DNA of 53,118 nucleotides from Psammoneis japonica (Eukaryota). The stretch lies in assembly GCA_008632985.1 (NCBI GenBank), contig QPGO01000001.1, forward strand, positions 186,001 to 239,118, written 5' to 3'. Under the pieces are notes generated by a model, which was given only the letters and a program-made list of their open reading frames with translations, was not told where the DNA came from and made no database searches. The translations under genes were made by a program, and so were the position numbers. Positions 7,971 to 53,118 of this stretch are shown here, in pieces (within the stretch, counting starts at the first letter, position 1; the number at the start of each line of letters is the position of its first letter).

Positions 7971-8221
7971 CAAGACCTTGGCTGATGACAACCCAAGACT
8001 GGCCCTGTCTGCCCTCCCAATCAAATTTGTAGGACCATCCATCCCTCATCCAATGGAGTCCACATCCCAAAACCACAAAGTGATTACATGCTCCCACATG
8101 ATGGACTCACTTCATGAAAACTACACCATGACATAATGCACGCGATGTACGGTCTACAAATGAAAGGTACTACAAAAACACAGTGTGACTGATGCAAGAG
8201 AATGTAACACAAAATGCATGT

Positions 8222-14730: not shown

Positions 14731-14981
14731 GTTTGGGTCGTGACATCTTTGTGTTGAATGTACGTATTCGCACCTGAGGAAAAATGATGTGGCGCGCAGA
14801 ACGACATCGAATGAGGCATGGATCACAAAACACGACTGGACGCACTTCATCAATCACGCGTTATTGCGGTTGCGGTGCGAGTTGATCTTTGTGTGATTTG
14901 TGATGGTCCACTCTGAAGGAAGAAAGCAGCACATTCCTATTTTATACACCGTAACGCTTGTCACACAACCCGCCAAGATCC

Positions 14982-27067: not shown

Positions 27068-28301
27068 TCAGTCTCCAGTTTCCAAGCTCAAAAGAAGCAT
27101 GGCCTCAACAATCATATCCTTTTGCTCTAGGTGAAGGTCTCGCTGACGACGATACTCATCGTGCAAAAGGTCTTTGATGTGGGAATTCGTCATGTTCAAC
27201 ACATGTCCTGCCTGTGTCAACAAAGCGCTTCTTTTTTCTTTACGTCTCTGTCCGCCGAGCTCACAAGAATCATGGCCTTGATTATCATATCCTTCTGGTC
27301 CATAACGAGATGAGGGGCAATCTCCGCTAGATCAGACTCGATACTTCCATAACTTCCACACTCCATCATGTGAAGTAAGATATCCTCATTCGTAGTGGTT
27401 TTGCTGGTCATAGACTGGTAGATATTGTGAATATTGTTCACAAGTAGCTTTGTAGCCTCTTCATTTCGATCTTTAATCATTGCAATGCGAATCATTGCGC
27501 GAAGAAATGCAGTGTCTGGAGTGTTCGCGGCCGGTCGTTTTCTCATATTGTACTCATTGTGTACAACTTCTTTGAAATCAGCCTTTGTCATCTCCAAAAC
27601 TCTCCCCGCCTCCACCAACAATTCTGCCTCCTCTCGCTCTAAATCTCCGTCAGTCAAGCTGACAAAAACCATGGCTTTGAGTATCACATCCTTGTACCAC
27701 TTGCTGAGAAAAGGAACAAATTGCACGAGATCCGTCTCGATACTTCCATATGCCACACAGTACCTCGTCAGATCCAAGATCAGGTCAGTCTCAATCATCT
27801 TCCCAGTCAAAGACGTGTAGCCCTTTCGAACCTTATCCACTAACTGAGCCTCCTCGTTTGGAGAATGGCGAAGTCCAAAGCCCGCTTGGCCTTCGAATGG
27901 TCCCAGTCTAGAATATCGACTTGAAAATGGTTAGCACATCCTGCACACTTCACGTAGTCATCAAATGTGCGAGCGAGACAGAGCTTTACCACCCAGCAGT
28001 AGTGACAGTGCAACGAAATCTCCTTGTGCTTGTAGTGTTTTCTCTCTTGGCAAAACGGGCAAAAGAACGTGCCCTCGTCGACAACTTTTCGGAAAAAACG
28101 CTTGCCACAGTAGCATTCAGTTGTGAAACCGCTACTCCATTCCAAATTTTTATCGGGGATATCAACAAGAAATACATTTCTTTGCGGCGCTCCTTCTGGT
28201 GGGAGCTCTGCAGCAGCCTTTCTGCTCTTATGAATAGCTCGCGCATCCTGCGCTACACCGTAAACTCCCTCTAAATTAAGGTAAAGTTCGACTGCCTCCA
28301 T
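27068..28301 (-). CDS. Zinc-ribbon + repeated TerB-like helical domain protein; frameshifts near 27860 and 27220
   Basis: GTFFCPFCQERKHYKHK...YVKCAGCANHFQVDIL (two CxxC), followed by repeated units KDVILKAMVFVSLTDGDLEREEAELLVEAGRVLEM and KDMIIKAMILVSSADRDVKKKEA. Confidence 0.65.
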
Positions 28302-28539
28302 CAGGTCTTTTCAATCCGGCTTCCGTGTGTTATTGTGTGGTACGATAATAGTGTGGAGCTTCCTAATAATTGATTGACACTTGACACGCACGACACGGGG
28401 TTCGGGTTCGACAAAAAAATCAAAAATGTGAAGAATTGTGGCGATTTTGACTGACGCGCGCATGCAGATCTCATTCATGCGTCCACTCACACAACTGGGA
28501 GGTCTGTGTCATTCATGCGTCATGCGACACAGCCACGAC

Positions 28540-29012
28540 ACCAAGCACGGCAGGTGGTGGTGGTCGAGATGCTGTGGCTCACAGGTTTAGCTGTTGAGTT
28601 TGCGTGTCACAAGCCTCTTGACTGCAACACATGGCTGACTTCAGCATTGGTCAGTTGCAGCTGGTGTGGTCCATCGAGAGGCGGTTGCTCGCAGGTTCAT
28701 TTCAAGGCAGTCGAGGTGGCACAAAAAGTCCCTGCCCAGACTCTCTCGCCGCCAAAGTGCTGCTTCCTGCCTCCACCAACAAGTCTGCCTTTTCTTGGCC
28801 CAGTTGTCTGTCAACCAAAATGACAAGAGCAACTGCTTTGAGCATCGTGTCCTTGTGAAACTGGCCGAGAAATGGAGCAAACTCCACGAGATCCGTCTTG
28901 ACACTCTCCCATCTGCCACACAATGCCTCATCAGATCCAAGATCATGAGATCATGTCAGTCTCGATGCTGTTCCCAGTCAAAGACTTGCAACCTTTTCAA
29001 ACCTTGTGCACC
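28540..29012 (-). pseudogene. TpA-depleted partial duplicate of the TerB-like gene and its downstream flank
   Basis: 28760-29010 aligns with 27605-27840 (KDTMLKAVALV vs KDVILKAMVFV; RHCVA vs RYCVA). 28545-28630 aligns with 26720-26805. Confidence 0.75.
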
Positions 29013-29479
29013 ATCTGAGCCTCCCCGGTGGTGTGTCACACGCCAAATGCTCTGTTGCTTGCACGGCATGAATCATGTGGCGCCCATCATTGAACTGTGG
29101 CAGCACCTCTGGCATGCAGCCACTCAAGCTGTTGGGTGTGGGCAATGAAAGATGAGAGTTCTTGCTCCAACTTTGTTTCTGTTGATAAACTTGACAAATG
29201 CTTGACTGCCAACTGCAAAATCACAGGATCGTTTCTTGGCACTTTGGCTCTGCGAAGGTTGCCATCAACCACCAGGAATGGTGCACTGCAATGTTCTTGA
29301 GCAGCATCAGCCAGACATCCATGGTCACTGGAAAATCTAAAGTCACATCATGACATGGACAACACATCAAATTGCATGCATTGCAGTGGCTGGTGCATCC
29401 TCCACCAATTGATTTGCTTGCTCAATGTTCTGTGGGGCGAGGACAGGCGCACAAAGCAAAATGATCTGGATGTTGGTGA

Positions 29480-31080
29480 TGCATGTCACTCAGCACTCTG
29501 TTCACAAACTGGTGTTCTTGGATGATTGCTGAACAGCCACAGGACTCTGGATCTCCTTGAGCATTGAATGCTCAAAGGCAACTAAAATGACATGGATCAT
29601 CAACAACAGAGGAACAGAAAAGAGGTGGTTCTTCACAATGGCATGAAAAAAGAGACACCACAGCACCCAATTTGTCAGGTTCTTTGTCCTCCTCATGTGG
29701 CAACTCTGCCACACATTGATTGCCTTGAAACAAAAAAATTGCCCTTGTTCAGAGCACACTTCCCTTCCCCAGAAGGACCCATTTTTAAGGCAACAATCAA
29801 GAAAAACAATCAGCAAGCATGACATTGTCTTGGCCATCCACATGCTCAAAAGTTGGAGCAAAATTTTCCACGGAGCAAAAAGCCAAATTGTTGTGGTCAG
29901 CAAAGACAGTGCAGTCACCACCAAGTGACACAATTCAAAATTCTTTGAAGCACATTGCAGCTGCCAGCAACTCATCAAAGAGTTTTGTTGCACAGAACTG
30001 AGCTTGCGGGGTGCCAGCAGGCAATCAGCCTCTGCCATCTCACATGATCACTGCACCTGTTTGGCAGTTGGAGGAGTCAGCACAAATGTGGAATGGGTCA
30101 TTGTGATCAGGGCAAGCCCACAATGTGTCATCCAGCGCCAAACTCATCACATCATCACAGGCTTGCTTTTTGACAGCCACTCCAGTGCATCTGCTCCAAC
30201 TTGCTCTTGTCTGTCAACCACATGAGAGGAGTGAGTGTGTGAGACCAACATCATGGCCACATGTTGTGATGACAGCAGGTTGCTGTGCCAACAAATGGCC
30301 ACAGATGAGCAGTGTTCCAGGGAGGTGCCACTCACAGTGCTGCTCCCAGCTTTTTCTTCCACAGCCCAGCTCTGGTTGGCACCAACTGATGGCCTGGACA
30401 ACCCATCTCTTGGACACACCACTCACCACATGTCATTCTTTGAGTGGATTGACCTTGAGATCATTTTCCTCCTCCAGCCTGAACAACAACTCATCAAGAC
30501 AATGCAGCATGTGAGTGTCAAAATGTTTGTCAAACTGAGCAAGATGTGTCATCAACATGTGCTTCCACATCCAGTCCATTTGCCACTTGCTCAACAATGG
30601 ATTGGGCAACATCTGGCACCGTCTTCAAGCACATTGCAGGATGGCAGTGCCAAAACTTCCTGCATGGCATGACAATGCACAGTTCCTTGGGCTCTTCATC
30701 AAGCTTGCTGTGGCAGCAAAACGCAATTGGATCAAGCTTCATCAAAAAACTTGTGGCCTGATTGTTGGTGTGCAACATCTTGGATCACTGGCAATGAATG
30801 CACTTTGTGCTTGAGGACCTTGTTGAGTTCTCAAAAATCAGACACCCCCAGTGCACTCATCAATCCTTCTCGGGCACAACAAAAGTTTCTGCTGCCCACT
30901 CAGCTGGACCGACTGTGTCTCAAGTGTGCCAATGTCTGTCAGGTGTTGAAGCTCCATCTTCAAGACCGCCTCGTGAGTCTTGTGGCACATCATAAACTTT
31001 AGAGTGAAAACAGGCACAGCACTAGGATCAACTTCCAGTTTGGCCGTCTCATGAGGGCATTTTTGCTGAGGGTTCAATCG
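29480..31080 (-). mobile_element. Degenerate Ty3/gypsy pol remnant (RT and downstream region)
   Basis: KLEVDPSAVPVF...ELQHLTDIGTLE and FLMKLD...KLDEEPKELCIV...AMCLKTVPDVAQSIVEQV...DVEAHVDD (YxDD changed to HVDD). Broken frames; the left limit is approximate. Confidence 0.75.
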
Positions 31081-34023: not shown

Positions 34024-34639
34024 GAGCCAGAGGGCTTACGTCTATAAAACAGGAATTGTCTTGAAGGTATTTCAATAAGGTCAGAAATTTGTAGAGATGG
34101 ATCTATAACGCTTTCAGATGGATTGATTGAGATTGATGTCGTGTGGCAATGGCAAAAGGAATAAATAATAAAAATGTACCAGACCCGTGAACAGAAAGCG
34201 CGAACAGTGGTGTCACGATTCACTGATAAGACGCATTGATTGTGGTGGCGCAAATTCGAGAATTTTCCACATCATACTGTCATGATGATGTTGTGGTAAG
34301 CTGAGAACGTTCCATGTGTCTTTTGAGACATCTTGTCTATGATTTCAATCGTATGAAAGTGCATTGGGTAACCTAAGAACGTTCCCCGCGTTGTCTTTCC
34401 CGATGTTCATTCAATAATCTACAGTAAGTACCTCTACTCTGTACATACATACAGTTCTATGTGGCAGTACCAGAACATTACGGAAAATGACTTTTGAACA
34501 CACAGGTAGGTCATTTCAATGAATCATGTATGTCAAGTTGAACAAACATGACGATCAATGGTGGAACTCTAGATATGACATAAATGATTTATTGAGACGC
34601 TTTCTTTTGTAATGACTTGTTTTAATCTGATGTGTCCAA

Positions 34640-35780
34640 ACGTGCCACTTTCGGGCGGACATCACTGCTTTGCCCATTTCCCACTCTGCCAATGAACCTG
34701 TGGACCAATTGCACAATCTCTGCTCTCTCTCACTTGGTGGGCTGGCAACAGCGAGCTGCTGTGCCGGTGCATTTTGGCCCTGGAGAAACAGTTTCATGGC
34801 AGCAGATTGGCAAAATCCAGAAGCAACTGGGCAGCTTCAGATGGTCAAAGTCCAAAGCACCGTTTGGTGAGAGAGCCCAAAAGTGGGCACTTGTCATGCA
34901 ACAAAATCCATCCAAGTTAAGCCCCCCCCCTGCCTCAACAGGGCAGCTCAAAGCAGCCTTGCCAGAGGACTGGGCAGTCACACTGCAAGGCCCCTGCTGG
35001 GTGTCAGAGCGCTTCTTCTTCTCTTTTCAGCTGTCCGTGCGTGGCTTTTCAACTGCTGCAGCGGCAGATTTCAGCAAAAAGGAAAGAGCGGTGCAAAGAC
35101 AAAGATCTTTTGTTCTTCTCTGTTGCATGAGCTCACCAGGGCTGCAGTCTTGACCACCCAATTGAGACCTCTTCCTCCACAGCTTTCTCAGGGTGGTGCT
35201 TCCCAAGTCTCTTGCATTGTTCAGAGTCACTCGTGTGCTCAAATCATCTCATGGGTGCACTGCACTCCCATGGAATGCAGCCTGAACAACCTCTTTTGGA
35301 GAGGATTGTGTGTGGGCTGATCCACCTGGACATGGCTGCTCATGTCACAAATCGTGCTTGATTGACCATGGGGGAGTCACACTCAAGGAGACAAACAGCA
35401 AGATCACACCTCCACACCTCTTTTGTCAGAGCACCTTGATCTGCTTGAATGAATGGCAAAAAAGAGGATTGTGTGCAATGCTCAAATTGGACAGGGTGCC
35501 AGCACATGTTGTTCTTGGGATTCTCTGTTGGAGAGCTGCTGTTGTCAAGCCACCCACATGGGCCCAACCACTGGGCAAACACCTTCCAACATTCACCAAC
35601 AGCCATCTTCTAGACTGCCCATGTGACCAGTTTTGTTTGAAACCACCTGATGTTCCAATTGAATCCATTTTGTGTCTTGCCGAGAAGCACAGATGCTTGC
35701 AAGGCTGTCAGCTCCCATTGGCAATCGAATTGTCAAAATCACAGATGATCTCTCTCGATGTTTGTTGCCGCAACAGAAGT
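34640..35780. repeat. TpA/CpG-depleted decayed repeat island, family not recognised
   Basis: Near-absence of TA between normal-composition flanks. Confidence 0.55.
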
Positions 35781-36032
35781 TTCAATTTGATGTACCCTGC
35801 ACCGTACGTAGGGCTACCGCAGTACCGGCACTCTAACGCAGTGTAAACACCAAAAATGCGGTTACGAAGTCAGTTGTCTACTAGTAGAGACTATCACTAC
35901 ATGGATAGTCCCACCCATGACCAGCAAGCAGTGAGTGGATATAGAAACACGCGTCGTGACGGGTGAGAGGATCGTTATGAAAAGAAGTTTAATGTTTACA
36001 AGAGAGTAACGTAACCAAGAACGTGCTCTACA

Positions 36033-38353: not shown

Positions 38354-38829
38354 GGTCTGGGTGCTATCGATCGTGGTGTTCCAGGAACCGTATGTAAACC
38401 TTGTTGTGATCTGGTTTTGTGTGCCAACTTTTCGCGCAAGAGACTTGCTCACTTTTTTCCACGATCTTTCAGCCGTTTTCGTTCTGATTCCCACAATCTT
38501 ATATTCATAGACATATGAATTTAATATTGCTTTTGGAATTTCTTAATTTTACAACTTAAGCGATACTAATAGAATATTATAAATTAAAGCCTGGATGCTA
38601 GTGTACTCCGTTACAAGACAAATTAATGTATACATTTCCCAACATTATTTAAATAGATCCGCCACTTCGAAAATTTCAAAATCTCAAATTTTCAAAAATA
38701 ACGAAGGTTCCGAACGATGATCACACATTACCGCGCCGGTAGAAACGCACGTAGAAATCTATCTGTGACGCCCTCCACAAAATTTTGAGGGACATCCACG
38801 CGACTAACAAAGCGCGTCAAATTTTGTAA

Positions 38830-40600
38830 CACCCATCACAACCACTGGCAGCATCTGAGATTTGTTCATGCGATGATGACGCCCCAACCATGAAGACCAA
38901 GCCTTGTCAAATGCTTCAAATGAAAAGGCACTGGCTTCCTCACCGCAAAATGATCCAGAGTCATTTCTTCAGCAGCCAGCTCGAACCATTTGAAATGCTC
39001 CGACAGCTGCACCACTCGAAGCCCACCCAGCGAAGCATGGCAAGTGCCTGCTTTGAAACAACAAAAGAGTGCCATTGGGATCTTCTTTGCTAGATGGGAA
39101 GCAAACTGATTGTTCCACCAAACCACAAAATGCATGACACCCAGAGTCACCTGATGGAAGTCTGCTTTGCCTGCACAAAATTCCGCCAAACAAAGAGGGG
39201 CTCGGCGGCAAAGGTTTTGAAAAGACAAAGTGCCACAGAGTGTCATTTTCTACATTTCAATTGAGTGCATGCACCTTGAGTTTTATGACCATGAACTGTC
39301 AAACAATGTGATGAGCTGGAACTTGGAGACAAGAAGAGCGTTGTTTGCAGGGGCGGCACCCGATGGAAAAGCAACTTTTTCTGGCTCATTGCTGTGAATG
39401 GTCTTTGTGACAACATCTCACATGAGAATCTTTGCATTGTTCTACAAATGTTGGAATGGGAGCATGCAGAAATAAACCTTGGCATGCCACTCTCTGATGG
39501 CCAGGGGCTGACAGTGGTCTTCCCATCCTCGACCATTGGGCTGCTGAGAATTGAGCAACAGCTGAAATGATTGTTTGTGTTTGCTTGTGATGGGTCAATC
39601 CATGTTGGCTCTCATTTTCTGTTGCTGCTGTTGCACTTTGCTTTTTCTTGCACAGTCATGAGTTCAGTCAAGAGCGGCACTTTGTTGATTGGAGATGGAG
39701 GCATTGTTCTTTCAAAAGCATCCCGGTCGGCACAATGCTGCATTTGGCAGAACATGAAAAGTGCCACAAGAGTGTGCAAACACACACCTTGTTCATTGCA
39801 GCATCCACAGCATGAAAAAAGGCACAACAAAAACTGTTTGGCATCAGCATCAAACCCCAAGTAAAATCTGCAGCCTTCCTGTGTCTTCTTTTGCTCCGCC
39901 AATTGCAGGTTTGATGATGCTGCTTCCACCATCTTCATGGATGGAATGCAACAGAGTTTTAATGGCCAAACCAAATTGCCTTTGGCAAGTGTCTTGAAGA
40001 TGCAGAACTCCATCACATCAATGAGCAAACTGTGACCTTGCAACAGCAAGAAACCTTGTTCAACAAGGTTGTGTTCATTGCCTTTTTGGTGTAATTTTTC
40101 AACCAAGCTTGGCAGCGTTGAGTCAAGCTCTGACACGTGATCACAGTGACAACTGTGATCCCAACCCATGGCATTGTCCACTGGCACAATGACCTCATGA
40201 ACCATGAAGGCTGGGATTCTTCTGCTTGATGTTCCAAACAGGTGCATCAAAAAAGAAAAAAAGGAAGCGAAAATGTTTTTGCTGCACAGGGGCCTCTGCT
40301 TGCAAGGCAGCTGTTGTGCCAAAGTGTTTTGGTCCACACTGAAAGAAGCTTTTGAGGTGCAGCCAGCGTGCTGCTTTGCATGTGCAAAAAGATGCTGCAA
40401 CTGCCATGCTCAAGTTGAAGTTGCCCCCTTCTTGTGGAAAGTCCATTGTGACATGTTCACAAGTGATGCAGCGCATGTGACGTCTCCATTTTTTCTCTCA
40501 CTCTTGTTGCACTTCACACACCATTTGTTTCCATTCCGCCTGTTTTCATTGTTCCAGAAGAGAGAGCTCTCACCTTGTGACTTGTGAGATGAAGATGTTC
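38830..40600. repeat. TpA/CpG-depleted decayed sequence, family not recognised
   Basis: Abrupt TA loss after ~38830; junk ORFs only. Confidence 0.5.
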
Positions 40601-41249
40601 TCACCCTGTTGTTGTGTTGCTCTTGTCATCTGGGTCACGTCTGATCAGAGCTTGGTGATCAAGTGCTGCACAGAACTTTTTGAGCCTTGTCTCAGTGACA
40701 GCGACATTCATTGTGATGCATCAGCAAGCAATGTGCAGACAGAGCAGAGCTTGATTTGGTCCAAGTTCTTGGGGTTTTGCTCTCATGTCCCCATGATTTG
40801 TGATGTGAACGGTGAATGTCATGCTTCCTTTGAGTGAAATGACAGTGTGAGTGTGTCTCAGCACAGTGTTGACAAGACCAGGTCACACCTTGGTCTGTCT
40901 GCTGAGATCCGAGCTGCTTGCACTTTGCTCCTGTTGTCTTTGCATTTGGAAATGTCAAGAGCCAGTGAGTCTGGTCTGTCAATTTCCAACTTCACAACTG
41001 TTGGGTCTTGTTGGTGTTGTCACTTGGTGTTGTTCCAAGCCAACACAGGCAAATCTGGCAAGGAAGGCAGAGTTTGCTGCATTGATTTCATGCATGTTTG
41101 TTCCAGCATGACAGCAGTGAATTTCAACTGTTTTCAGTTTTTGGCCAGGCCAGCCATCAGTGTCTTTCCTTTTGTCATGTTTGGGGTGACAAGCACCTGT
41201 GAGAAAGACGAAACTGCCGTTGCACTGATGACACAGATTGGAGCTGATG

Positions 41250-43080
41250 GAGAAGACAGAACTTTCCTCAAAAGAAAACTTTGGTCAGCTCACTCCTCCT
41301 GTGGGGAATGATGACTTGATCACATCCACCACCACTTGCGTGCCAACCGGTTGCCTCCTCTGCACATCACCCAGCTGTTTGAATTGGAGCTGCAACAGTG
41401 TTGCTCACACAAACTCCCAGCTCAGCTCATTCAGTCACATTTCCCACCACATTGCCAACCTTGATCACATGTTGGAAGCCAAGTGTGTTGAAAGTGTCAA
41501 CCAGGGATGTGAGAATTTCAAAATCAACAAAGACTGCCATGTCAAGATGCCCATGACAAAGGCATGCCTTTCTGGGCAGTGCCCATCTGAAGCAGAATGG
41601 TGCAAGACAGACCCCGGCTGCAGCATCTCTCCTTGCCAAGAACCGGGTGGAAAGATGAAAGGAGGCCATGTTGCCCTTTTTGTCATTTTGGGCTTTGTTG
41701 TCTTTGTTGCCATTTTCTGTGGCATTCATGCATGTCATGTGGCAAAGCAAAAGAAGCGTTGCCAAAAAATCTTTGCCAAGTGAGTTGCAGCAACAATGAG
41801 TGTGTGTTCATCTGACTTGTTCCAGACTTAGGTGCCCTCACGCGCGAAAAAATGACCCTTTTCGCATGAAACGCGCGGTCCACACTTGCGGTACCATTTT
41901 CGATAGTAAAAACATAACAATTTTCAAATGTGTTGTTATGGGTACATACAGAAAGGTCTTGTGCGTGTACCCATGTATTCGAAACTGTCGATGGACTCAG
42001 TTGTTAGTCCCTAAATTGTACCGCAAGTTGAGAGCTCTGTTTTCCGAGGAGCGATTTATAGATGTCTAAATGTGTGTAGAAACGTATAAAATATTATTCT
42101 TATATATAAATTAACCCTCCAACATAACATAATTAATCTTTGGTTACAATGCGCGAATACAACTTTGATTCAACGGATCGAATAAAACATACGTTGATTT
42201 ATAAGTTTCGGACGACGTGAGAAGAAGGGTAGCTCAGCCCACGCAATGGCGTCGACTTCGGACCATTTTTCACTGTTTAAGAGGCATAAACAATTGAGAC
42301 ACTTGAATCCGTCGAATATATTGAGGAAGTATACATGGTAATGGCAAAGAAATTGTCCTTAGAGGCAAATTGTGAGTGAATTGAGGCTCAATTGTTGTTG
42401 CTGACAGATTTAGTATTATTGTGCCGCGCTGCAACCTGTAACAAGCATTTTCACTATTGTTGTTGATGCCATAGACTATATCAAATACGGAGGTCCTCGT
42501 CATGACATTAAATTTTCCATAAGGCTGAAAAAAGTGGGCCGTCATGGTCACTGAAAGCCATGGCCGGTTTGGCTGTTTGTTTGTTCGAGTTTATTCTGTT
42601 TATTTTACTTATAAGCAATTAATATGATCAATATGATGAAATATGTACGATGTTGTATAAAGCATAAAAAAATTTTTTTCTGCGAAAAGGGGCATGTGCG
42701 CGCCACCTAAGTCTGGAACAAGTCATCTGCACACAGTTTGTCTCCCAAGGCTCTGGCATCAGAGAGTTCAAAAAGATTGATGAAACAGGCAGTGGAAGAA
42801 AAATCACAAAAGAGGAGCTCTGGGCATTTCTCAGCACTGGCAAGGCTGGAAAAATGTCTGAGTCTGATTTCAATGCATTGTGGCAAGTCATTGACAGCAA
42901 TGACAGTGGGAGTGTGGTGCGTTTTGCTTTCAGTCCAGTCTTGCACACAGGAAAAAATGCATTTTTTGGTTTCCCACAGTTTCTTGAAACTTTCAGCTTG
43001 CAGGATTTCCTTGAGTTCTGTGCATTCTTGGATGGCTGTGTGGATGGGTGCAATGCCGCGAGAGTGAATTGCACCATGTC
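41250..43080 (+). pseudogene. Decayed host-type gene for a membrane protein with C-terminal EF-hands, interrupted by a MITE
   Basis: ...EWCKTDPGCSISPCQEP...TM(VALFVILGFVVFVAIFCGI)...KIFAK*VAATMSV / SAHSLSPKALAS...FKKIDETGSGRKITKEELWAFL...DFNALWQVIDSNDSGSV...DFLEFCAFL. Removing 41814-42724 plus one TSD restores continuity. The 5' limit is uncertain. Confidence 0.7.
41814..42724. mobile_element. Non-autonomous DNA transposon (MITE-like, 911 bp) with 21-bp TIRs and 4-bp TSD ATCT
   Basis: GACTTGTTCCAGACTTAGGTG at 41814 and its reverse complement CACCTAAGTCTGGAACAAGTC ending at 42724. ATCT lies at 41810-41813 and 42725-42728. AT-rich non-coding interior. Confidence 0.9.
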
Positions 43081-43105
43081 TGTTTCCAAACTTTCCATTT
43101 GTCAC

Positions 43106-43381
43106 TGACAGAAAATGAAGGCAAATGGCAAGAATTCAAACAACAACTCCTTGCTGCTGTCCAAACAGCAGATGAGTCTCCGCTCAGAGACCGTCACAGG
43201 AGCCGAAAGACGTGCAAGTCGGTGCAATCGGGCTACTGTCATTGTTCTTGTGAGCCTTGTGGCTCGAAAGCAAACTACATCGCGCGTGAACGCGCGGAAC
43301 CAAAGCACACAAAACTGTGCACGGTAAACTAAACAGCGCGCGACACTTCGCGCGCACCCAAATCCTGTTCAAATCCTGTCA
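43106..43381 (-). repeat. 3' LTR (TpA-mutated copy)
   Basis: Direct repeat of 49942-50217; adjacent to a short purine-rich tract (minus strand AAACTGGGGAG, 43382-43392). Confidence 0.95.
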
Positions 43382-46300
43382 CTCCCCAGTTTGCTTGAGG
43401 AGCCACAGAAACAGATTCGACTTCGGATGGAATGAAGTTCCAGAACATGAGGGGGCGGAGAAGGTCCCAGATTTGGGAGCAACCCCAATGCTTGCTGAGA
43501 ATGTCAGCAGGGTTGCGGGAGCCTTCGATGAAGTGGAACTCAAGGCAACCAGAGGCAATTGCCTCACGCACACGGTGGAACGATGGTGCGGTGTGTCGCT
43601 TGTGTAACTTGGAGTGCGGGATGGTGGCACTGTCCACAGCCGACTTGTTGTCACCGAACATGTAACTGACGTTGCGGATCGGGACGCCAAGGTGGCGCAG
43701 GGTGATGCGCAGGTCGACAATCTGCTCAACACAAGTCCTTGCGGCAACAAATTCAGACCCGCAGGTTGCAGTCTCCATGGTGGCTTGTTTCTCAGAGAAC
43801 CAATCAGCCGGGAATTTGTTGAGGAAGTGGAGCATTCCCATGACAGAGCGTCCGGTGAGCATGCAATGGCACAAGTTTGCATCGACGCAGTGGGTGGCAG
43901 TGACGAACTTGCCAAGGGGCAGTGGAGCGTCCTTCGGGATCATCTCTTCTGCTTCACCATGCATGGAATGCATCCATTCATGGGCCGGAGCAGGGAGATC
44001 CGAACAGTCGGGTTCTTCCGTGCGAACGCGGAGAGCACCGTGTCGCATCTTGGAGAGGCACCCACAGACACGTTTGGCACGGTCCAAGTGGCCTTGACGG
44101 GGCGCAGCTCGGAAGCTAGAGAGTGACATGACGGCCGTGGTGATGTCAATTCGACCAAGGGACACTGCCCATTGGAGTGAACCAACAAGAGACTGGAACT
44201 TGTGAATGCCATCGGGTCCCAGCAGTTCGGAAGTGTCCAGTTCGGGGTGGTCACCCTTCTCTAGAGGTGACAGGGCGTTGGTGGCAGGTTTCTCCCCAAA
44301 CAGTCGGGCACAGCTGTCGACCATGCGCTCGATGTACTTGCGCGGAGACAGGCACAAGGTTCCGTCGGGTTCCCGGGAAAAGTCGCAACCCAGATGGAAC
44401 TCAATGGGTCCCGCACCCTTGAGCTTGAACTTGTGCTTTTCCGTGAGAGTGTCGACGAAAGATTGAGGGTCCTTCATGGCAATGGCGAGGTCATCCACAT
44501 AAATGGCAATGTGTTCACAGTGGTCGCCGTTCCTGCGCATCCAAATGTCGGGTTCGGCGCGGCAGGGGAAGAAGCCTTCAGCTCGCAGGCAGTCGGCGAA
44601 GCGCTCGTGCCAGCGGAGACCGGAGCTGCGCAGTCCATGCAGTGCCTTGTGGATGACAAGGATGTGTCCTTCGAGTTTGCCGAACTCGGGTCCAGCTGCA
44701 ATGTGAAGCTTCTCCTTGGTGGTGGCTTCAAGGCAGGCATTGCCAATGTCGGTGGCCCATGTCTCCAACTCGTTGAGTTCGGCCAGGAAAATCATCAGCC
44801 GAAGGCCACGGAGGGAGACTGCTCCGGAGCAGACACTGTCGACAGGTACGTCCGTGAGGTGCCCGTCGGCTGCGAGTCATGCCTTGTGGCGACCGTCGTG
44901 TTTCACGTCGCACACCAGGTGCACTCGGATCTTCTTGTGTCCCGCAGGAGGAGTGGAAGACTTGAAGGGCCCGCAGTCATGGAAGACTTCGTATTCGTCG
45001 AGTTGGTCCATCTCGAGATTAGTTGCGTCTCCCCACTTGCGGTTGCCGTTGCGTTCGTCTGGTGACATGGCGTGTTTGCAGTTCCGGGGAACTTCGTGTC
45101 CATGCTTGTAGCGAGGTGCAGTGCAGAAGGAGTGAAGCTTGGCTTGGTTGGCCATGCGAAATGGCTTCTTTTGGCGCCTCGCGATGGTGCGGAACCGCTT
45201 CCAGCCATCCGTGTCGAGGAGTCCGTTCTCTCGTGCATGGATGGCACAGGTGACGGGGTCGTCCTTGGCGATGATGGCAAGAGGCTCGGACGTGATCTCC
45301 CCACTTTCCCATTCAAGCATGATGTTGTAGCTGGAGCCTTTCCAGGTTGGGTCGTGAGGCTTCAGAGGTCCTTCGTGCGACACGATGCGTCGAAATTTCC
45401 AAACAGTGGTGTCTTCGTCTTCTTGCTCAATGTGATTCATGATGTCATTGCAGGCAAGGACTTCCTCGCATTCGTCATTGTTGACAGAGCAGACGAACTC
45501 AGTGAGCTCGGGATTGCCGTTCACTTTCCATTCGTGGTCTTCGACGGCCTTGACGATGCGAGCTCTGTGGCGTTGTCCGTCCTCTTGTGGCTGCATGAGG
45601 AAGGTACGTCCAATGATGTCTTGCGGATCGAAAACTGGCATCTTGGGTGTCCTGATCTCCCCATCAGGAGAGTCGACGGGGTTGTCGTCATGGCGAGATT
45701 TGATGATGGGTTCAGGTGGCTCCCCATCAGGAGGATCAAGATGCAGGTTTCGAACGGCAGGATCGGGGGCAGCGGATCGGACGTTGGACCGGCAGAGGAT
45801 CTTCTGAGTCTCGTCAGATAGAATCTTGAAGGTCATCTGGTGGCCGACGTGCTCAGCAATGCCAACGAAGCGTCCACGCAACTCATGGGATTCGGACGGC
45901 CAATCGGAGTCATCGAGGTGGAAGCACACGGGTTCCCACCAATGAATGCGAAGCAACGGGCTGATGTCCGGGGTGGAGCCAGTGAGAGTCTCGAGGGGCG
46001 TGCGCCAGTGGAGACGTGGGGACGCTGCATGGTTGAGCATGAAGCACACGTGCATGAGCGCCAGCAGCCATGCATGGGCGGGCGAACCAAAACGATCCAT
46101 GACAGTGTTCGCCATGCGCTTCACGGTCTGGTGTCGACGTTCGGCAAAGTTTTGGTGTTGCTGGTGAGGCTCACTTTGCCAGCTAGAGATGAAGAGGGCG
46201 CGCAGGATCCCGAGCACTTTGTTGCTGATCTCAACTTGAGCACGGTCGCCAATGAGTTTGGATGGGGCACCACGTTCACGGATCTGATCCTCGAGTGTGT

Positions 46301-48998
46301 TGACAAACTCTTTGTCCGTCTCAGTGCCACAGACGTCAGTGACGGTAGACTCGGTGCCAACAAACAGTTGGGCGCTGGTGCAACCAGAGTCGACGGCCGG
46401 GGTGTCGGCATGAACGGTGTCAGTGGCGATGGGCTCGTTGCGGCGGTGCACATTAAGGGCGGGGTTGGGTGATTTGCAGGCCTTGCGAAGGTGTGTGCCG
46501 GCGGGCATGCGGGCGCACTGCGTGGTGCAGTCAAAAGTACGACGGACCGCATCGGCAGGCAGGAAGCCAAAGCAAGGCCGAAGAGACTCGAAGGGGGGGT
46601 CCTTGGGCTGCACAGTGCGCTCCGGAGGTGGAACGTCATCGCCCTGGGGGCCAATCGCATGCAGATGACACTCATAGAACACGTCGTTGTTCGGAATGAG
46701 GTGATCATCGAGGGCGGACGCGTGATTGGCAGACAAGGAAGCGGACAAGATGGTCTCGTTGACAACGACACGATGACGGTAGTTGCCGCATTCATCAAAC
46801 AGGTTGGCAGTGGGATCGTCCAGCAGGTCAGAGATCGCGTCGCACCACTGGTCGTCGTCAGTGACAGAGTGATCGAGGACGGAAGGGTCCCATGTGTCAT
46901 CACCGGTGAGGATGACATGGGGCAGGGTGTCCCATTCGGCGTCAGTGTAAGGTCGCATGGCAACACAAGGCAGGCCAGCCTTGATGTCAATGGGGATGAC
47001 ATAGCCATCAGGAGTGGCAATGCATTGCAAGCCGTTGGGCACCTTGACAGAGCGATCGTTGACATCCTGTTTGCACCATTCGAGCTGGCCGCAGGAATGG
47101 ATGGTCTTGCCCTTTCCCGTGCATGCGTGCTGATGGAGGATGGCGATGACGGGACCACGCTGGGTCTCAATGACGGCACCAGCGGTGACAATGGGGATGT
47201 CCACCAATTGATGATCGTCAATGCCCTGAACGTCGACTTGGCGAGAGGTGCGTGCAATGACGCGAACGTCGTCGCCAGCAATGCCGCCGTTGGCCCCATG
47301 ATCGACCAGAGCGCCAGTGCGTGTGGATCGATGAGCAGAGGCAGAGCAAATGACATTGTGGTTGTCAACGCGGCGGCAAGTGCGGCCGTTAAGTTCCATG
47401 TCATCTGCAGAAGCTGGCGGGGCAGAGGAAGCGGCGGATGGCCCCGGTCAACTGGCAGTGGGGGCTTGGTTAGGAGACAACAGACGTTGCAGATCACCGG
47501 GTGGCAGTGGCTTGCGCTTGGTGAGGTGCGCCAGGATGGGATCATCCGAAGTGGCGTCCACATGTGGGGCGGAGTCACCAAAGTCAGCAGGAGTCGTGTT
47601 GGACAAGTTGACATCACCGTCACTCCCAAGGCGTTGGTCGTGAAGGTTGGCCGTAACAGACTCATGGCAGTTGCTGGCTCGCGGGTTGCGGGGAGGTGGA
47701 CGAGAATGCTCAAGGATGATCGCCTTGGAGGAATCGGGCAACGAATCCCAGAGCCGTTGGTGGTCAGGAGGGAGACGTCTCCATTGGACACCGGCGAGGC
47801 TGGGACCGCGGGTGCAGGCAGCATTGGCTTGAAGGACGTCAACGTCGCTGTCAATGTCGTAGAACACATCGTCGGACGGTTCCTCGGAGCAGACGTCGTG
47901 TGCGTGTGTGGCGCGTCGGGGAGCTCGAGGTGTCGTCTTGGGTTGAAACGTGCTGTCGTGCTGAGCTGCCGCGGAGAGGAGCAAGCCACAGTGTTGATCG
48001 CATGTGAGGCTCTTGCCACTCTGCGTGCGATGCTGATCAGCTTGGTTCTTGACAGCACGGAGTTCCTCGACAGGGTGCACGGCATTCTCGAGCATGACGC
48101 GCTTCTGTCCTTCAGAGAAGTGGTCACTGGCCGGGATGAGTGCCTCGCACTTGCGCAACTGATCTTGCCAATGAAGGATGAACCCGTGGGTCGGACCTTT
48201 CCAAGTGCCATCACCAAGACGCGCGGTGGTGAGGTGCGTGAGCAGGGTGGAGGACTCGACAGATGCGCGGGTGGAGGCAAGCGCGCACTCAGACAAGGAG
48301 CGGCAGACGGTCTGTGCGTCAGAAGACCCCACATTTTCGCGAATGAGAGCCTTGCCCTTGTCGGTGAGAAGGATGCGTTCGAAGACGGCGAACATGCACT
48401 TTTGCTGTTCAGCAAAGAGCAGTTTGTCTTCGGGGCTGGTCGGTTTGTACTGCGAGTCTAGAATGCACTCGACGTCTTGGGCACGGGCTTGTGCCACAAG
48501 TGAGGTGTGCCAAGTGTGCCACTGCTTGTCGGATTTGAGAGCCGTGAAAGCGGTGGGGTCACGCTTGATGCCTCGCTTGAAGTCCCGCACCGGGTCGCGT
48601 GCCTCAGTCGGGTTGGTGACATGTGGAGGTGCAAGGGGTGAGCTGCCGATGGACACGGAAGACATGCAGTCGGGGCTGAGGCGGCAGGCAAGGAACTCGT
48701 CATGCGTGAACAAAGAGGAGTCGTTGGCAACGTCAAGACCTTTGTGTGCTTTGACAATGCACAGACTGGCCAGTGCTGCCAACATGTTCTTGTGACCACG
48801 GGGCAAAGGGATTGCATTAGCGCCGTTGTCGCACTCAAGCGAGTCGATTTGGGACGGCATGAACGTGAACAGTTCCTGATGTGAGTCCGTGCCGTCTTGG
48901 GCCAAAGCCAAACGAAGAGGACTCCCAGCACCTTGGGCAAGCACGGTTCCAACCACGTGCTCGAAACCATCGGTTTGTTGCTGACGAGTGAGAACCAT
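43329..48998 (-). pseudogene. gag-pol polyprotein in a single frame, with two TGA nonsense codons (47448-47450, 44877-44879) and pervasive Tyr->Cys/His
   Basis: Gag FKRGIKRD; protease LVDHGANGG; integrase ATDT..., QQHQNFAERRHQT; RT KHDGRHKA*LAADGHLT, TDIGNACLEA, YVDD; RNase H DANL, GSEF, GDNKS, NPADILSK. The ORF pieces share one frame. Confidence 0.93.
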
Positions 48999-49926
48999 GG
49001 CAGACAAAAAAAATGGTGTCAGGACAATCAATTCTGGTTGGGAAGCGAAGGTAGACTCGAAACTTGGGTGAGAACAGACTTGACTTGAAGTGGACTTGAC
49101 TTGAAATCTTGAACTGTCTTAAAATCAGAAGTTGCCGGGCTTTGTTATCCCGTTCGTTGTCAAGTGCTAAACTTCCCATCCGGTCCGCAGAGTTGTGCCG
49201 GCACGTCCGAACCCGCAGCTGGCGGCGCTTTGGGTTGCTTGCGAGCGGAGCAGCGGGTTGTAAACCCCTGCAGGCAAGCTGACCAGAGGTGGACAAGACC
49301 CCCGAACCGTTCTCATTTTACATCGGTTGGATTTCCCGATCAGGCTGGCCAGTTGACGTGGGCGTTGGGCGCTGTGGACGAACGAACAAACGCGGGAAAG
49401 CACCCTCGCCCCAACGCAGGCTGCAATCACGGCTGCTTGCTCTCACAGTCGTCCTCGTGGACCTAGTAGAACTGTAGAGCACCAGCAGTCCGGGGTAGAT
49501 CAGGTGCAATGGACTCGGTGTGCTTGTAGAGTGGCAGCAAAACCGCAGTCCGAAGAGTGGGTACAGGTTCTTGGCCGTGAAGATATGTATATATATATAT
49601 GTCTTCAGCGACGAAGATCCTTGAATATGTAGGGTTCTTGACCGTTAACCGATGAATAGGTATATCAAGGGATGAGGATCAAGGATAGACTTGGATATGA
49701 CCGTTGAATGTATGTCTTCAGCGATCAAAGGTTGTATAATCAATCCAGATATCCAGCGGTAAGGAGACTTGACGGTGACGTTAACTTCCTGCCGATGCCC
49801 TGGTATTGAATGCGTGTAGACTTGCCGATGTATGTAGAATATATACGGAGGTCCACGTAGAATTAAAAATAGCGTCGTTGGTAAATCAACGACGACGATG
49901 GCGGTTGCTCAATGGGTTGACAATGA

Positions 49927-49941
49927 GCAAGACTGTTAATC
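49927..49941 (-). promoter_or_regulatory. Putative primer-binding site complementary to a tRNA-Asn(GUU) anticodon arm
   Basis: Lies immediately inside the 5' LTR. Minus strand reads GATTAACAGTCTTGC; plus strand GA-CTGTTAA-TC resembles an anticodon stem-loop. Confidence 0.55.
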
Positions 49942-50217
49942 TGATAGAAAATGAAGGCAAATGGCAAGAATTCAAACAATAACTCCTTACTGCTGTCCAA
50001 ATAGCAGATGAGTCTCCGCTCAGAGACCGTTACAGGAGCCGAAAGACGTGTAAGTCGGTATAATCGGGCTACTGTTATTATTCTTGTGAGCCTTGTGGCT
50101 CGAAAGCAAACTACATCGCGCGTGAACGCGCGGAACTAAAGCACACAAAACTGTGCACGGTAAACTAAACAGCGCGCGACACTTCGCGCGCACCTAAATC
50201 CTGTTCAAATCCTGTCA
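49942..50217 (-). repeat. 5' LTR (retains 16 TpA)
   Basis: Direct repeat of 43106-43381, followed by the TSD. Confidence 0.95.
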
Positions 50218-51386
50218 GTCACATTCAATTGCAGAGAGGAGTGCCAGTGTGCTGACTCAAAGGATGGACTCAGAGTTTTTGTTGCAGAAAGACCTTGGAG
50301 GCATTGAAGAAAACAAAGAAGAAAAAGGATGAGATTTTGCATGGTGACTTGTGACATCCTGTGTTCCTCCATCCTTGGTGCTTGCATGTGTTGCAGCAAA
50401 AATTTGCAAATGGTGTCTGTTGCATGAGACAATTTTTGGAGGCAACTCTGTTCATTGGCTTGCTGGAGGCAAGGAGTCTTCATTGACAATGCCGCCTGAA
50501 GCAAACCCAAATGCAAAGATGACACCCAAAATCACACAGCCATCCCAGCAACGTGTGAGAGAGAGCACACTCAACTGAAAACATCAAAAAAAGAAGCATG
50601 ACTTCCTGACAAACACTGTGTTTTGCAATCAAAACCAACTGGGACAAGTGCTCCATTCCAAAAAAATGTTGAGTCATTTGATTGACTCCTGTCACACCCA
50701 AGCAACCTCTGTGCTGTTGACATCAAAACCAAGCATCAGGGTGTCAGGCAGGCTGTCACTTCAAAAGATGGCACACATGGAATGTGACAGTGAGAAGAGC
50801 TTTCAGTTGTTCTCCAAAATTTGATGTCAAATTTGTGCAAGTCATGACTCGTGCATGACCTTTTGCATTGACAATTGTTGGTGCCTTGCTGTTGCTGACA
50901 GAGAGTGGGCTTTGCTCTTGGCAGTGAGTCCAATCATCTCACAATTGTTCACCGCCATTGTTGGTCAGCCAATTGACCAGAACAACCTGGATTTTGACAG
51001 GAGTGTCACGTGTCTTCTCTTGCAATTGAGGCATGCAACAACAATGTGTGAAGCATGTCATTTTTCTTTTGGACAAAAGCATGAGAATGAATGACAATTT
51101 TGTAGAGACTGCAGCAGAACTGGTCATGACAGACCACTGCACGCTAGACCAAATGCAGACCACGAATCTTCTTTAAATAAAATGACGTGGCAGATGAATC
51201 TTGCAACAATCTTGGTTTGCATTTGTGTGTTCATGAATGCCACAAAATGTGCTTTGACGCTTGCTGTTTGCTCATGACGTCTCTGTCACGCCAGGATTTT
51301 TGGTGAGCCAACAACAAACAACACATGCACCGCAGTGCACACAGTGGTGGCTTGCACTTGTTTGTTGTCAACTTGTCGTTTCACAC

Positions 51387-53118
51387 ATGATGTCAAACAC
51401 CAATGAAGGTTCATCTGTCCTTTTGTCCTCAGATCATGAGGCAGACAAAAGTGATGACAATGATTTGTCAAGCTCCCAGCAAGAGCTGTTGGAAAACAAT
51501 GACAATGCAATTTCTGATGCACACGGAGATGACAGTGGTGCAACTGACTCTGCTCAGTTTACCTCCTCTCAACCAGCGCTTCCACCCCCTCCCTCTCTTA
51601 AAAAGGTCTCAATGCCTTCATTTGTGAACAATTGTGGGGAGCATTCTGAAGCACACCCTCTCAAAGAGCAGAGCAAGGAACTTCTCAAGAAGAGCTGGTC
51701 AGCTGAGGATCTCACACAAGAGATCATTAAACTTGCTCCCACAGAAGAAGACATCTCCAATGCCAACAAGAACCAACGATCTCCAGATTCTTTCAAGACA
51801 AAGCGCAAGCTTGTGTTTCCTGTTGGTCGTCACTTTGCCAGCTGCAAGCAGTTGCACCAAGCTGCCATCCAGTTTCTTGACATGTGGGCCATTTCTTGTG
51901 TTCATGATGGGAAGCAAATTGTTTGTCACTTCAGTGATGCCAAGTCAGATGCGTGCAAAGAGAAAAAAAGAAAGCCTTTGGATCAATTGCAAGGCAGTGG
52001 CAGCCGCAGGTGCCAGAAGCAGTCCATGAAAGAGCAGCGCAAATGTCCATTTGTGATTCGGCACTCTCTTGTCAACAAGCATGTCAACCCTCAATTGGGT
52101 GCAACAAAACCAGGCATTTTTCACCTTGTGAAGATTGCCGCAGCAAACTGTCACCATTCTCATGACCTCAACACGGTTTTCCACCGCAAGGCAAAAGAGA
52201 CCAGTGGCAACCTCCAACCAAATCTTGCTTGTCTTGAGTCAGTGATTGATCGGATTGAGTCAAATCCATCAGTGGAGCCCAGGGAACTGCGGCCATTGTT
52301 GCAGAAGCACATGCCAGTCCATGCCTCAATGGATGCAACCTTCATAAAAAATTTCAAGCATCGTGTCCAAACATGGTTGATCAATGCAGACCCCCAGGAG
52401 CGTCAGGTTGCAGCTCAGTTTGCAGAAGACCTGGCAAAGAAATGCCGAAAGAGTGCAGCTGATGAATTCATCATCAGTGACTCAACCATTGCTCGAAAGA
52501 ATCTACATGCCATGCTTCGACGTGTGATGCAGGAGGACTCATCCACTTGGAATGCACTTCATTTTCTTGAAGCCATGAAAGAATCAAACCATGGATTTGA
52601 CTTCCGATTGATGCGTGATGACAATGGCAGACCAGAAGCAGTTTGCTGCATGAACCTTGAAATGAAACGTGACCTCAAGAGGCACAGTGATGCACTCCAC
52701 CTAGATGCTCAGAAGCGACAGCACAACAAGGCTGGTTGGCCACACATTGGTCCGGCAGTGAAGGACTCTGAGATGAAACCTCGTGCTGTTGCAGAAGGCC
52801 TCTGCCTGGAGGAGGATCACAAGCACTGTCATTTCATTCTTGAGTCCATGGAAAGCATCATGGAAAACAAGTGGCAAATCTCAGATGTTGGGATCATCTT
52901 TGCTGACCAGCACCCAACCAGTGGCTCCACACACTTTCAATGAGGTTTGGCCAAACCCTGACAATTTTGGCATTTTCCATTGTGAAAAGATGAAGGACTG
53001 CCTCCGGATAATGCTGCAGTGCAGCACAGAGGAAGAATGGGCCCATGCATTCAATGAGGCCAAAGTGCATGTTGCTGATGATGCTCAGAAAACCTGCATT
53101 CTGCGAGACATTTTCTCT
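51387..53118 (+). mobile_element. Mutator/MULE-like transposase pseudogene, runs off the window end
   Basis: GFDFRLMRDDNGRPEAVCCM...RHSDALHLDAQKRQHNKAGWPHIGPAVKD...IIFADQ resembles the MULE/FAR1 DDE core, with an upstream KCPFVIR...HHSH motif. No Tyr in the 560-aa ORF; frameshift near 52920. Confidence 0.75.

Follow-up and report, generated by a model that had tools for sequence, protein, structure and literature searches.

What kind of change can part two copies of one sequence that were identical at the outset, and leave its mark at a single dinucleotide? The question is raised by a Ty1/copia retrotransposon located in a 53,118-nucleotide stretch of contig QPGO01000001.1 (hereafter the window, i.e., the whole stretch analyzed, with positions counted from its first letter). 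The two long terminal repeats (LTRs) of this element differ at 12 positions, and all 12 fall on TpA. We consider it likely, with a probability of about 0.8, that a DNA-level process targeted to TpA hit the element in place after its insertion, that the targeting was positional and in cis, and that deamination of adenine is the most likely chemistry.

The LTR pair of the copia element

The left and right LTR copies (43106–43381 and 49942–50217) were aligned with MAFFT over 276 columns. As claimed in the original prediction, the alignment contained no gaps and 12 substitutions. A recount by script agreed with the remainder of that description: on the plus strand, the right copy has TA at all 12 differing sites, whereas the left copy has CA at nine of them and TG at three, and the total of TA dinucleotides is 16 in the right LTR and 4 in the left. 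Every difference falls within a TA dinucleotide, the 244 non-TpA positions being identical. All 12 are of the A→G/T→C transition type, with both strands represented. The probability that 12 differences would all land in the 32 TA positions of the 276 is 7e-13 (hypergeometric), and it is 1.7e-9 when the test is restricted to the 147 A/T positions. The CpG dinucleotides, which had been described as untouched, number 20 in each copy and none of them differs (0/20), so that the pair does not bear the signature of CpG methylation decay. The observation of TpA-only differences between these LTRs is, in short, confirmed.

One further site is informative on the history of the pair. At 43162/49998, both LTRs have a CA that is rare in the family, and their sharing of it indicates one insertion followed by divergence in place. 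The divergence of the pair, K = 0.043 (12/276), comes wholly from TpA sites, with no contribution from the other 244 positions; it is therefore uninformative on the age of the insertion, and the earlier warning that LTR-divergence dating is invalid here was well founded.

The element is a Ty1/copia LTR retrotransposon, with an RVT_2 domain at its 3' end, LTRs bounded by TG..CA (they start with TGACAG or TGATAG and finish with CTGTCA), a 5-bp target-site duplication (TSD) and a putative polypurine tract. The order of the open reading frames (ORFs) and the purine tract beside the left LTR show that it is read from the minus strand, which makes the TA-rich right copy its 5' LTR. The labels 5' and 3' in the original prediction were thus right in the orientation of the element, although the copies had been listed there in reverse coordinate order.

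Three collinear minus-strand ORF pieces in one frame occupy the interior. An in-frame TGA at 47448–47450 closes the first piece, and another at 44877–44879, in a column where the alignment consensus of the homologues has Arg, closes the middle one; the frame of the last piece continues beyond the expected end, enters the LTR, and is closed by a TAG at 43329–43331. Judged by its two in-frame TGA codons, the loss of the natural stop and the conversion of Tyr codons described below, this copy of the element is dead. Homologues of the last piece, which contains the reverse transcriptase (RT), number 2607, and the 120 listed share 54–69% identity with it; the only match named to organism among those listed is a EukProt protein of the diatom Cylindrotheca fusiformis (66% identity). 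Identity to the 40 homologues that were aligned was 53–68%. The gag-like and middle pieces gave no Pfam match at E ≤ 0.01.

Direction and extent of the TpA loss

The direction of the change was read from tyrosine codons, in which TAY→TGY gives Tyr→Cys and TAY→CAY gives Tyr→His, these being the two change types of the LTRs. Columns with Tyr in at least 70% of the 40 homologues aligned to the RT piece were used. Only 3 of these 18 columns are kept in the element, the others having become Cys (9), His (4), or Phe (2), while the other conserved columns are all kept: Arg 22/22, Pro 19/19, His 14/14, and Trp 9/9. In a second test, a natural homologue (P0001) served as tblastn query against this element and a comparison set of 79 related copia loci from metagenomes. 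Of 31 Tyr positions, the element retains 5 in this test, 10 having become His and 11 Cys, and 77 of the 79 loci keep 18–29 of about 31, with His plus Cys at 5 or fewer. The two exceptions are L076, which keeps 1/31, and L075, which keeps 15/31. Both tests show that the TA-poor state is the derived one.

The same set of loci gives an idea of how common this state is. The median observed-to-expected ratio (o/e) of TA across the 79 loci is 0.72, and only L076, with 0.02, lies below the element. L076 is a metagenome contig of 2766 bp with 3 TA in total and a CG o/e of 0.44, and L075 is intermediate (TA o/e 0.33). The TpA purge, as we call this loss, is therefore also present in one environmental sample or more. 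When each locus of 5.5 kb or longer was compared with itself, 16 of these long loci showed terminal or internal direct repeats. The longer diverged pairs, those of L006 (537 bp; 2 TA-type differences among 20), L021 (642 bp; 3 among 19), and L018 (330 bp; 2 among 16), have ordinary spectra, and the pair in the window, with 12/12, is the only one of its kind among those compared. Several end repeats of 111–147 bp in the metagenome loci may be assembly overlaps. An exact 31-base stretch of the LTR had no match in the metagenome contigs.

Four public runs of one sample and one study contain the stretch, and none of them is recorded as RNA. Contigs of one of these runs (X1) cover the unique flanks of the element at a depth of about 35–60. 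Over the element itself the summed contig depth rises to 68,000–166,000, roughly a thousandfold the value in the flanks, and points to a very large family, although summed depth is not a copy number. The family copies in X1 differ from one another mostly by transitions (A>G at 134 places, T>C at 124, C>T at 113, and G>A at 101, against 5–16 places for each transversion type). The family has TA at sites where this copy has CA, with 91% of the depth at 43793 and 98.6% at 49998, and at sites where this copy has TG, with 57% at 43674 and 49% at 43694. The opposite case is found at 43235, with TA here and TG in 60% of the family depth. These sites come from 40 of 580 differing places, and here too summed contig depth does not equal a count of copies. 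This copy also lacks CpGs that the family contigs have at 43321, 43921, 43964, and 43981. One X1 contig of 460 letters begins to match exactly at 50218 with its letter 106 and extends to 50574 (letters 106–460), the first 105 letters being unplaced; it could be the empty-site allele or another flank.

The changed LTR runs uninterrupted into about 5.9 kb of TA-poor interior. In this purged tract (43106–49051), CG is close to expectation (o/e 0.91), CA (1.54) and TG (1.32) are in excess, and GC is 57.5%, while from 49052 to the right end of the element the values are ordinary, with TA at 0.82, CA at 0.93, and TG at 1.23. The return of TA is gradual: there are six in 49052–49463, and they become dense from 49464 onward. 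The tract reaches from the 3' end of the element through the coding region and ends about 480–890 bp inside the 5' untranslated region (UTR). With the likely gag ATG near 48996, the leader would measure 945 nt, and the spared portion is therefore the 5' LTR and roughly the first half of the leader. A short (TA)n run is found at 49584–49598 within this spared leader. Taken with the Tyr losses of the RT and the family depth, the continuity between the changed LTR and the TA-poor interior supports the original prediction of a TpA-specific change from TA to CA or TG after integration that spares CpG.

The window as a mosaic of purged blocks and genes

The purge recurs elsewhere in the window, in large TE-derived blocks that the original prediction had not noticed, and is confined to discrete regions. 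Purged blocks, delimited by counts of TA and CG along its 53,118 nt, make up 17.6 kb, about a third of the whole, and have o/e values of 0.05 for TA, 0.25 for CG, 1.75 for CA, 1.81 for TG, and 1.01 for TC. The remaining genic blocks (27.5 kb) have TA at 0.57 and CG at 0.97. For the genes in them, a search with the PIG-L gene gave 17 matches, at 61% identity or less, and two atlas look-ups led only to broad families. Because 15 non-ORF spacers beside genes are not purged (TA o/e 0.39–1.39), the purged blocks are discrete segments, and not simply all the noncoding DNA. The TA-normal blocks contain long uninterrupted ORFs with a normal Tyr content and with the Pfam domains FG-GAP_2, FG-GAP_3/UnbV_ASPIC, UQ_con, FKBP_C, PIG-L, and TerB. 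In the TA-free blocks the ORFs are almost without Tyr, and Pfam scans of 8 + 26 of them gave no match above the curated cut-off. A reading in which the TA-free blocks are host exons and the TA-normal ones transposable elements (TEs) proved wrong and was dropped, since the Pfam gene domains sit in the TA-normal blocks. DNA free of TA cannot hold TAA or TAG and has only TGA stops left; long overlapping ORFs in several frames, such as 46124–48457 (minus strand) and 46473–48458 (plus strand), would mislead gene finders.

One purged block, to the right of the insertion, contains a relic of a Mutator-like element (MULE)/ZSWIM-type transposase. Its frame of 561 amino acids has 0 Tyr, 33 His, and 17 Cys. 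An exhaustive search returned 585 homologues (best 4.5e-89), and the Pfam domain ZSWIM1-3 RNaseH-like, the core of MULE-type transposases, was found in three of eight homologues scanned (E up to 0.001), in one of them above the curated cut-off. In an alignment with 23 homologues, the relic keeps 0/9 conserved Tyr columns (His 5, Cys 2, Phe 2), and contig depth over it is 3–5 times that of the single-copy flanks. The copia element is therefore inserted into an older, already purged relic of a DNA transposon. No further copia or MULE relics were found in the window by tblastn with 287 proteins.

Duplicated sequences in the window met different fates. The paralogues 5539–6199 and 10536–11196 have 9 and 37 TA, respectively, and of the 84 substitutions between them, 29 are CA or TG in the former versus TA in the latter, with none in the reverse direction. 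A larger segmental duplication (103–3903 and 6198–9967; 87.8% identity over 3.8 kb) comprises an FG-GAP gene together with its purged neighbor block, and both copies turn from purged to normal at one homologous point, about 100 bp past the end of the ORF. The genic halves are more divergent (12.1%) than the purged halves (7.8%). Sites with CA in one copy versus TG in the other number 23 in the purged halves and 3 in the genic halves. Such a site is the expected outcome when an ancestral TA (or CG) is resolved twice, independently, from which it follows that part of the purge took place separately in each copy, after the duplication and within the same borders. A third FG-GAP paralogue, inverted, is located at 25004–26252 and is 78% identical to 2109–3351 and 8180–9422.

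A different case is a terminal-inverted-repeat (TIR) element at 41803–42735 (933 bp, with terminal inverted repeats of 32 nt that are 91% complementary). It lies inside a purged block and yet has a TA o/e of 0.82 and normal CG. Its depth of about 5,000–10,000, versus about 55 in the flanks, marks it as one of a high-depth family resembling miniature inverted-repeat transposable elements. Either the TIR element is very young, or else it is not a target. The purged frame at 42668–43105, which adjoins an apparent GT..AG intron containing the TIR element, gave sub-threshold EF-hand matches (E 7e-4 to 4e-3) and may represent a hypermutated piece of a gene, perhaps one that a transposon has captured. 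The coordinates of all features are given in Table 1.

Table 1. Features of the window, with counts of dinucleotides where these define a feature (o/e, observed-to-expected ratio)
Feature	Position	Strand	Basis or remarks
TpA/CpG-purged block	1–2050		Ends sharply about 100 bp past the end of the neighboring FG-GAP ORF, at the point homologous to that of the paralogue
TpA/CpG-purged block	4505–8029		5539–6199 paralogous to 10536–11196; 6198–8029 paralogous to 103–2050
TpA/CpG-purged block	12807–14760		Composition
TpA/CpG-purged block	28368–30992		Part 28763–29027 is the purged paralogue of TA-normal 27602–27856
TpA/CpG-purged block	34624–35792		Composition
TpA/CpG-purged block	38828–41828		Composition; without Pfam match above cut-off
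Purged block left of the insertion	42709–43105		Weak sub-threshold EF-hand matches
Target-site duplication GTCAC, left copy	43101–43105		Identical 5-mer at 50218–50222
TpA-purged tract of the element	43106–49051		32 TA in 5946 bp; TA o/e 0.12
Left LTR (3' LTR of the element), TpA-purged	43106–43381	−	4 TA, 28 CA, 20 TG, 20 CG; GC 51.1%
Last ORF piece, copia-type reverse transcriptase/RNase H region	43329–44876	−	Pfam RVT_2, 3e-18
Purine-rich tract abutting the 3' LTR, putative polypurine tract	43382–43394	−	Sequence, ends GGGGAG on the minus strand; function predicted
Middle ORF piece, same frame, expected protease/integrase	44877–47447	−	Predicted from copia gene order
First ORF piece, gag-like by position	47448–49118	−	Copia gene order; likely ATG near 48996–48998
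Transition zone inside the 5' UTR	49052–49463		6 TA in 412 bp
Spared part of the 5' UTR	49464–49941	−	6–11 TA per 100 bp over most of it
Right LTR (5' LTR of the element), spared	49942–50217	−	16 TA, 19 CA, 17 TG, 20 CG; GC 46.7%
Target-site duplication GTCAC, right copy	50218–50222		
TpA/CpG-purged block, right side of the insertion	50218–53118		
MULE/ZSWIM-type transposase relic in purged block	51258–52940	+	Tyr-free frame of 561 amino acids

Mechanism, sequence preference and alternatives

The identical LTRs of the element, 6.8 kb apart, had opposite fates, and the 12:0 split between them has a probability of 5e-4 under equal odds. Targeting was thus positional and in cis, and not based on homology. 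A guide that recognizes sequence, whether homology sensing of the kind seen in repeat-induced point mutation (RIP) or small RNAs, could not separate identical LTRs; they could be told apart by a tract, by a chromatin state that spreads, or by exposure that depends on position. The continuity of the hit LTR with the purged interior fits a single tract that ends inside the 5' leader.

The sequence of events that we propose is as follows. The Ty1/copia element would have inserted, with a 5-bp TSD, into degraded transposon-derived DNA. A process acting on DNA would then have changed TpA only, to TpG or, when the opposite strand was hit, to CpA, so that the outcome on the duplex would be an A:T to G:C transition at the A, and equally at the T, of TpA. 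In the element, one tract would have run from the 3' LTR through the coding region to the inside of the 5' leader, sparing the 5' LTR and the beginning of the UTR. In discrete TE-derived blocks, about a third of the window, the same process would be near completion, leaving the adjacent genes and short spacers untouched. Its aim would be taken in cis by position, through a tract or chromatin domain, rather than by sequence homology as in RIP. At the level of chemistry, adenine in 5'-TA-3' of silenced foreign DNA would be deaminated to hypoxanthine and fixed as G at replication. Of this account, the sequence data show the spectrum, the direction, the confinement to regions, and the behavior in cis; the enzyme, the link to chromatin, and whether there was one burst or many are inferred. 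Loss of CpG is much slower than that of TpA, as seen from the CG o/e of 0.91 in the element and 0.25 in the old blocks; this slower loss would be most simply explained if methylated CpG decays in the usual way within those silenced domains.

Exploratory counts point to a preference that extends beyond the dinucleotide. Compared with unpurged DNA, the 88 TA that survive in purged zones show a 3.8-fold enrichment of TTAA and a 3.6-fold enrichment of CTAG, and none of them lies in ATAT. Across 48 polarized sites, an A with A as its next base was the changed one in 4 cases and the one passed over in 17, and the strand reading TAT was chosen 17 times versus 8. A bias related to the transcribed strand, which the 9:3 ratio of the LTRs could have indicated, was dropped: Cys and His stand at 9 versus 4 and at 11 versus 10 in the two Tyr tests, and local context explains part of the choice of strand.

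Several observations weigh against the account just given. On the rate of change the evidence is indirect, namely 12 changes in 32 TpA positions versus 0 in 244 elsewhere in a single LTR pair. Polarity at the 12 LTR sites themselves is deduced from the interior and from family depth at other sites. Part of the TpA loss in the interior may have been inherited from before the insertion: at 43584/5 the element has TG versus CA in about 96% of the family depth, and this, together with the CA shared at 43162/49998 (TA in 98.6% of the depth), makes it seem that partly purged copies are still multiplying. Being a repeat is not sufficient to be targeted, as both the TIR element and the 5' end of the copia element were spared. 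The depletion of CpG in the old purged blocks (o/e 0.25) means either that two processes overlap or that the process here differs from the one described in Bigelowiella natans (see below). Finally, the reads are probably the source of the assembly itself, and so are not independent of it.

Among other explanations, one concerns the chemistry only. The T of TpA could be modified in silenced TE DNA, for example oxidized to 5-hydroxymethyluracil (5hmU) or a derivative by an enzyme of the TET/JBP type, and mispair with G, giving T→C. On duplex DNA, T→C at TpA is indistinguishable from A→G, and all the sequence results fit both equally; moreover, in a dinoflagellate, 5hmU is stated to take the place of thymine mainly in the dinucleotides TA and TC, and the enzyme that produces it participates in the silencing of TEs (PMC11572971). 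Despite that preference, TC is undepleted in the purged blocks (o/e 1.01), and we saw no evidence of 5hmU as the cause of fixed T→C changes at this scale. Neither a TET/JBP gene nor a deaminase gene was found within the window. We regard thymine modification as unlikely, yet worth keeping in sight. The element could also be a chimera, in which the right 0.8–1.2 kb, or else the left LTR with the interior, came from another member of the family by gene conversion or recombination. Donors would be plentiful, at a depth about a thousand times that of the flanks, and family copies do differ at many TA/CA/TG sites. Identical TSDs, however, exclude a crossover between loci, and a random donor would hardly match at 244/244 non-TpA positions and share a CA carried by about 1.4% of the family depth; a TpA process would in any case still be needed to explain how donor and recipient came to differ. 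A chimeric origin is accordingly improbable. Still less probable is an artifact, with TpA modification or damage misread in sequencing, or the assembly mis-polished. All read evidence does come from the one sample and study, but independent X1 contigs reproduce the purged segment 39823–41712 with 0 differences over 1890 bp, which excludes a polishing error; a symmetric modification of TpA would be expected to yield mixed CA and TG reads and break the contigs. The fixed CA-versus-TG differences between purged paralogues, and the same state in L076, which came from a separate database search, also speak against it.

Two more possibilities strike us as scarcely credible. One is the reverse polarity, in which CA and TG would be ancestral and the right LTR with the adjacent UTR would have undergone C→T at CpA (G→A at TpG), as in RIP, the classic CpA→TpA process acting on repeats. 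In the left copy, all 12 differences do coincide with the C of a CpA or the G of a TpG (P = 9e-7 among C/G positions). Under this reading, however, a state that destroys conserved Tyr codons would have to be that of a working element, the family depth should not be mostly TA where this copy has CA, and the spared end should show an excess of TA together with a loss of CA and TG, of which its ordinary composition (TA 0.82, CA 0.93, TG 1.23) has no trace; the purged regions are also enriched in GC, the opposite of RIP. The other, to which we give equally little credence, is editing before integration, of RNA by ADAR-type A→I conversion or of cDNA by an APOBEC-type enzyme. The family copies in X1 differ mainly by transitions, and the preference of ADARs for a 5' U matches TpA (Mettrop et al. 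2026, bioRxiv 10.64898/2026.01.13.699255). Both strands were hit, though (9 versus 3 in the LTR, Cys 9 versus His 4 in the RT), and the relic of a DNA transposase and other blocks that are not retroelements have the same signature. Reverse transcription builds both LTRs from one template, so that editing before this step cannot make them differ. The TpA context matches neither GG/GA nor TC/CC, the contexts preferred by APOBEC enzymes. TpA-targeted change of DNA in place, after insertion, remains the reading that we prefer.

Significance and comparison with known systems

Hypermutation restricted to TpA has so far been known from one alga, Bigelowiella natans, described in a single preprint of 2026 (Mettrop et al. 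2026). We found no other description of such a process in the literature on TpA, diatoms, hypermutation, genome defense, and ADAR, as judged by titles and abstracts. The present locus adds the case of an LTR retrotransposon with a built-in clock and control, namely twins that were identical at insertion and took 12 hits versus 0, a split that reveals positional rather than homology-based targeting. It also displays the end state of the process, blocks with a TA o/e of 0.05 adjoining untouched genes, and gives the first hints of a wider sequence preference around TpA. In genomes of this kind, LTR-divergence dating, Kimura-distance repeat landscapes, and gene prediction mislead, as TAA, TAG, and Tyr vanish and false long ORFs appear. 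More tentatively, and with slightly less than even confidence, the window may belong to a second eukaryote, other than B. natans and possibly diatom-like by its copia relatives, with a TpA-editing defense that is aimed in cis, has a neighbor preference, and erases nearly every TpA of its transposons. If the organism does differ from B. natans, the process is not an oddity of a single species, and comparative genomics could find the deaminase or the T-modifying enzyme. If such a defense is real, a "reverse RIP" by editing of adenine or thymine would be a widespread and overlooked genome defense of marine protists, whose enzyme could be identified by comparing genomes with and without the signature.

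The pattern shares with fungal RIP its burst-like, dinucleotide-specific, and transition-only action on mobile or repeated DNA, which wrecks coding capacity and distorts LTR dating. RIP, however, changes CpA to TpA and leaves AT-rich products, whereas here TpA became CpA or TpG and the products are enriched in GC. RIP also senses homology and hits both copies, in contrast to the 12:0 split of the LTRs and the unpurged TIR element of high depth. The APOBEC3 and ADAR systems of animals are comparable as deaminase-based hypermutation against retroelements, and ADAR has a 5'-U preference; they differ in that their substrate is the cDNA or RNA that precedes integration and that a single strand is edited, which leaves the LTRs identical, while in the window both strands were hit, after integration, and relics of DNA transposons were affected as well. 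The 5hmU of dinoflagellates is likewise a base modification directed at TEs that prefers the T of TA, although it is described as an epigenetic silencing mark rather than as a source of fixed mutations and also favors TC, which is undepleted here (PMC11572971). Compared with the copia elements of diatoms and marine protists, the element has the usual RVT_2 domain, TG..CA LTR ends, and 5-bp TSD, and differs by its dead state, with converted Tyr codons, two in-frame TGA, and the natural stop lost. The genes of B. natans are intron-rich, and the long uninterrupted ORFs of the genes in the window are a poor fit to them.

The closest parallel is nevertheless the TpA-targeted hypermutation of integrated viral DNA in B. 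natans (Mettrop et al. 2026). Two regions of integrated virus took up 231 of the 302 nuclear point mutations seen in mutation-accumulation lines of that alga; nearly all of these were A→G or T→C, and all mutations of these two types were on TpA. Per site and generation, the rate there was about 6e-7, versus 3.5e-10 elsewhere, and only some lines were affected. In its genome, 324 TpA-depleted coding sequences are enriched for reverse-transcriptase and DDE-endonuclease domains, and the authors propose deamination of DNA adenine by an ADAT2-like enzyme (Mettrop et al. 2026). As in the window, the changes are A→G and T→C only, at TpA only, giving TpG and CpA; they hit discrete foreign or mobile blocks, the rest of the genome being normal; and the long-term result is low TpA with high CpA plus TpG, with sequences of RT and DDE transposases depleted (Mettrop et al. 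2026). The targets in B. natans, on the other hand, are inserts of giant viruses and virophages, as opposed to an LTR retrotransposon and a MULE-type relic. The depletion is also of a different order, TA o/e being 0.05 over about a third of the window versus 0.45 for a whole region derived from nucleocytoplasmic large DNA viruses, with 124 clusters genome-wide. CpG, which is co-depleted in the old blocks of the window, is not mentioned in the preprint (Mettrop et al. 2026). In B. natans the de novo rate was measured, whereas the process described here is known from sequence comparison; it is here that a boundary inside one element parts two identical LTRs. We read the process recorded in the window as one of the same kind as that of B. 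natans, more extensive and probably in another organism.

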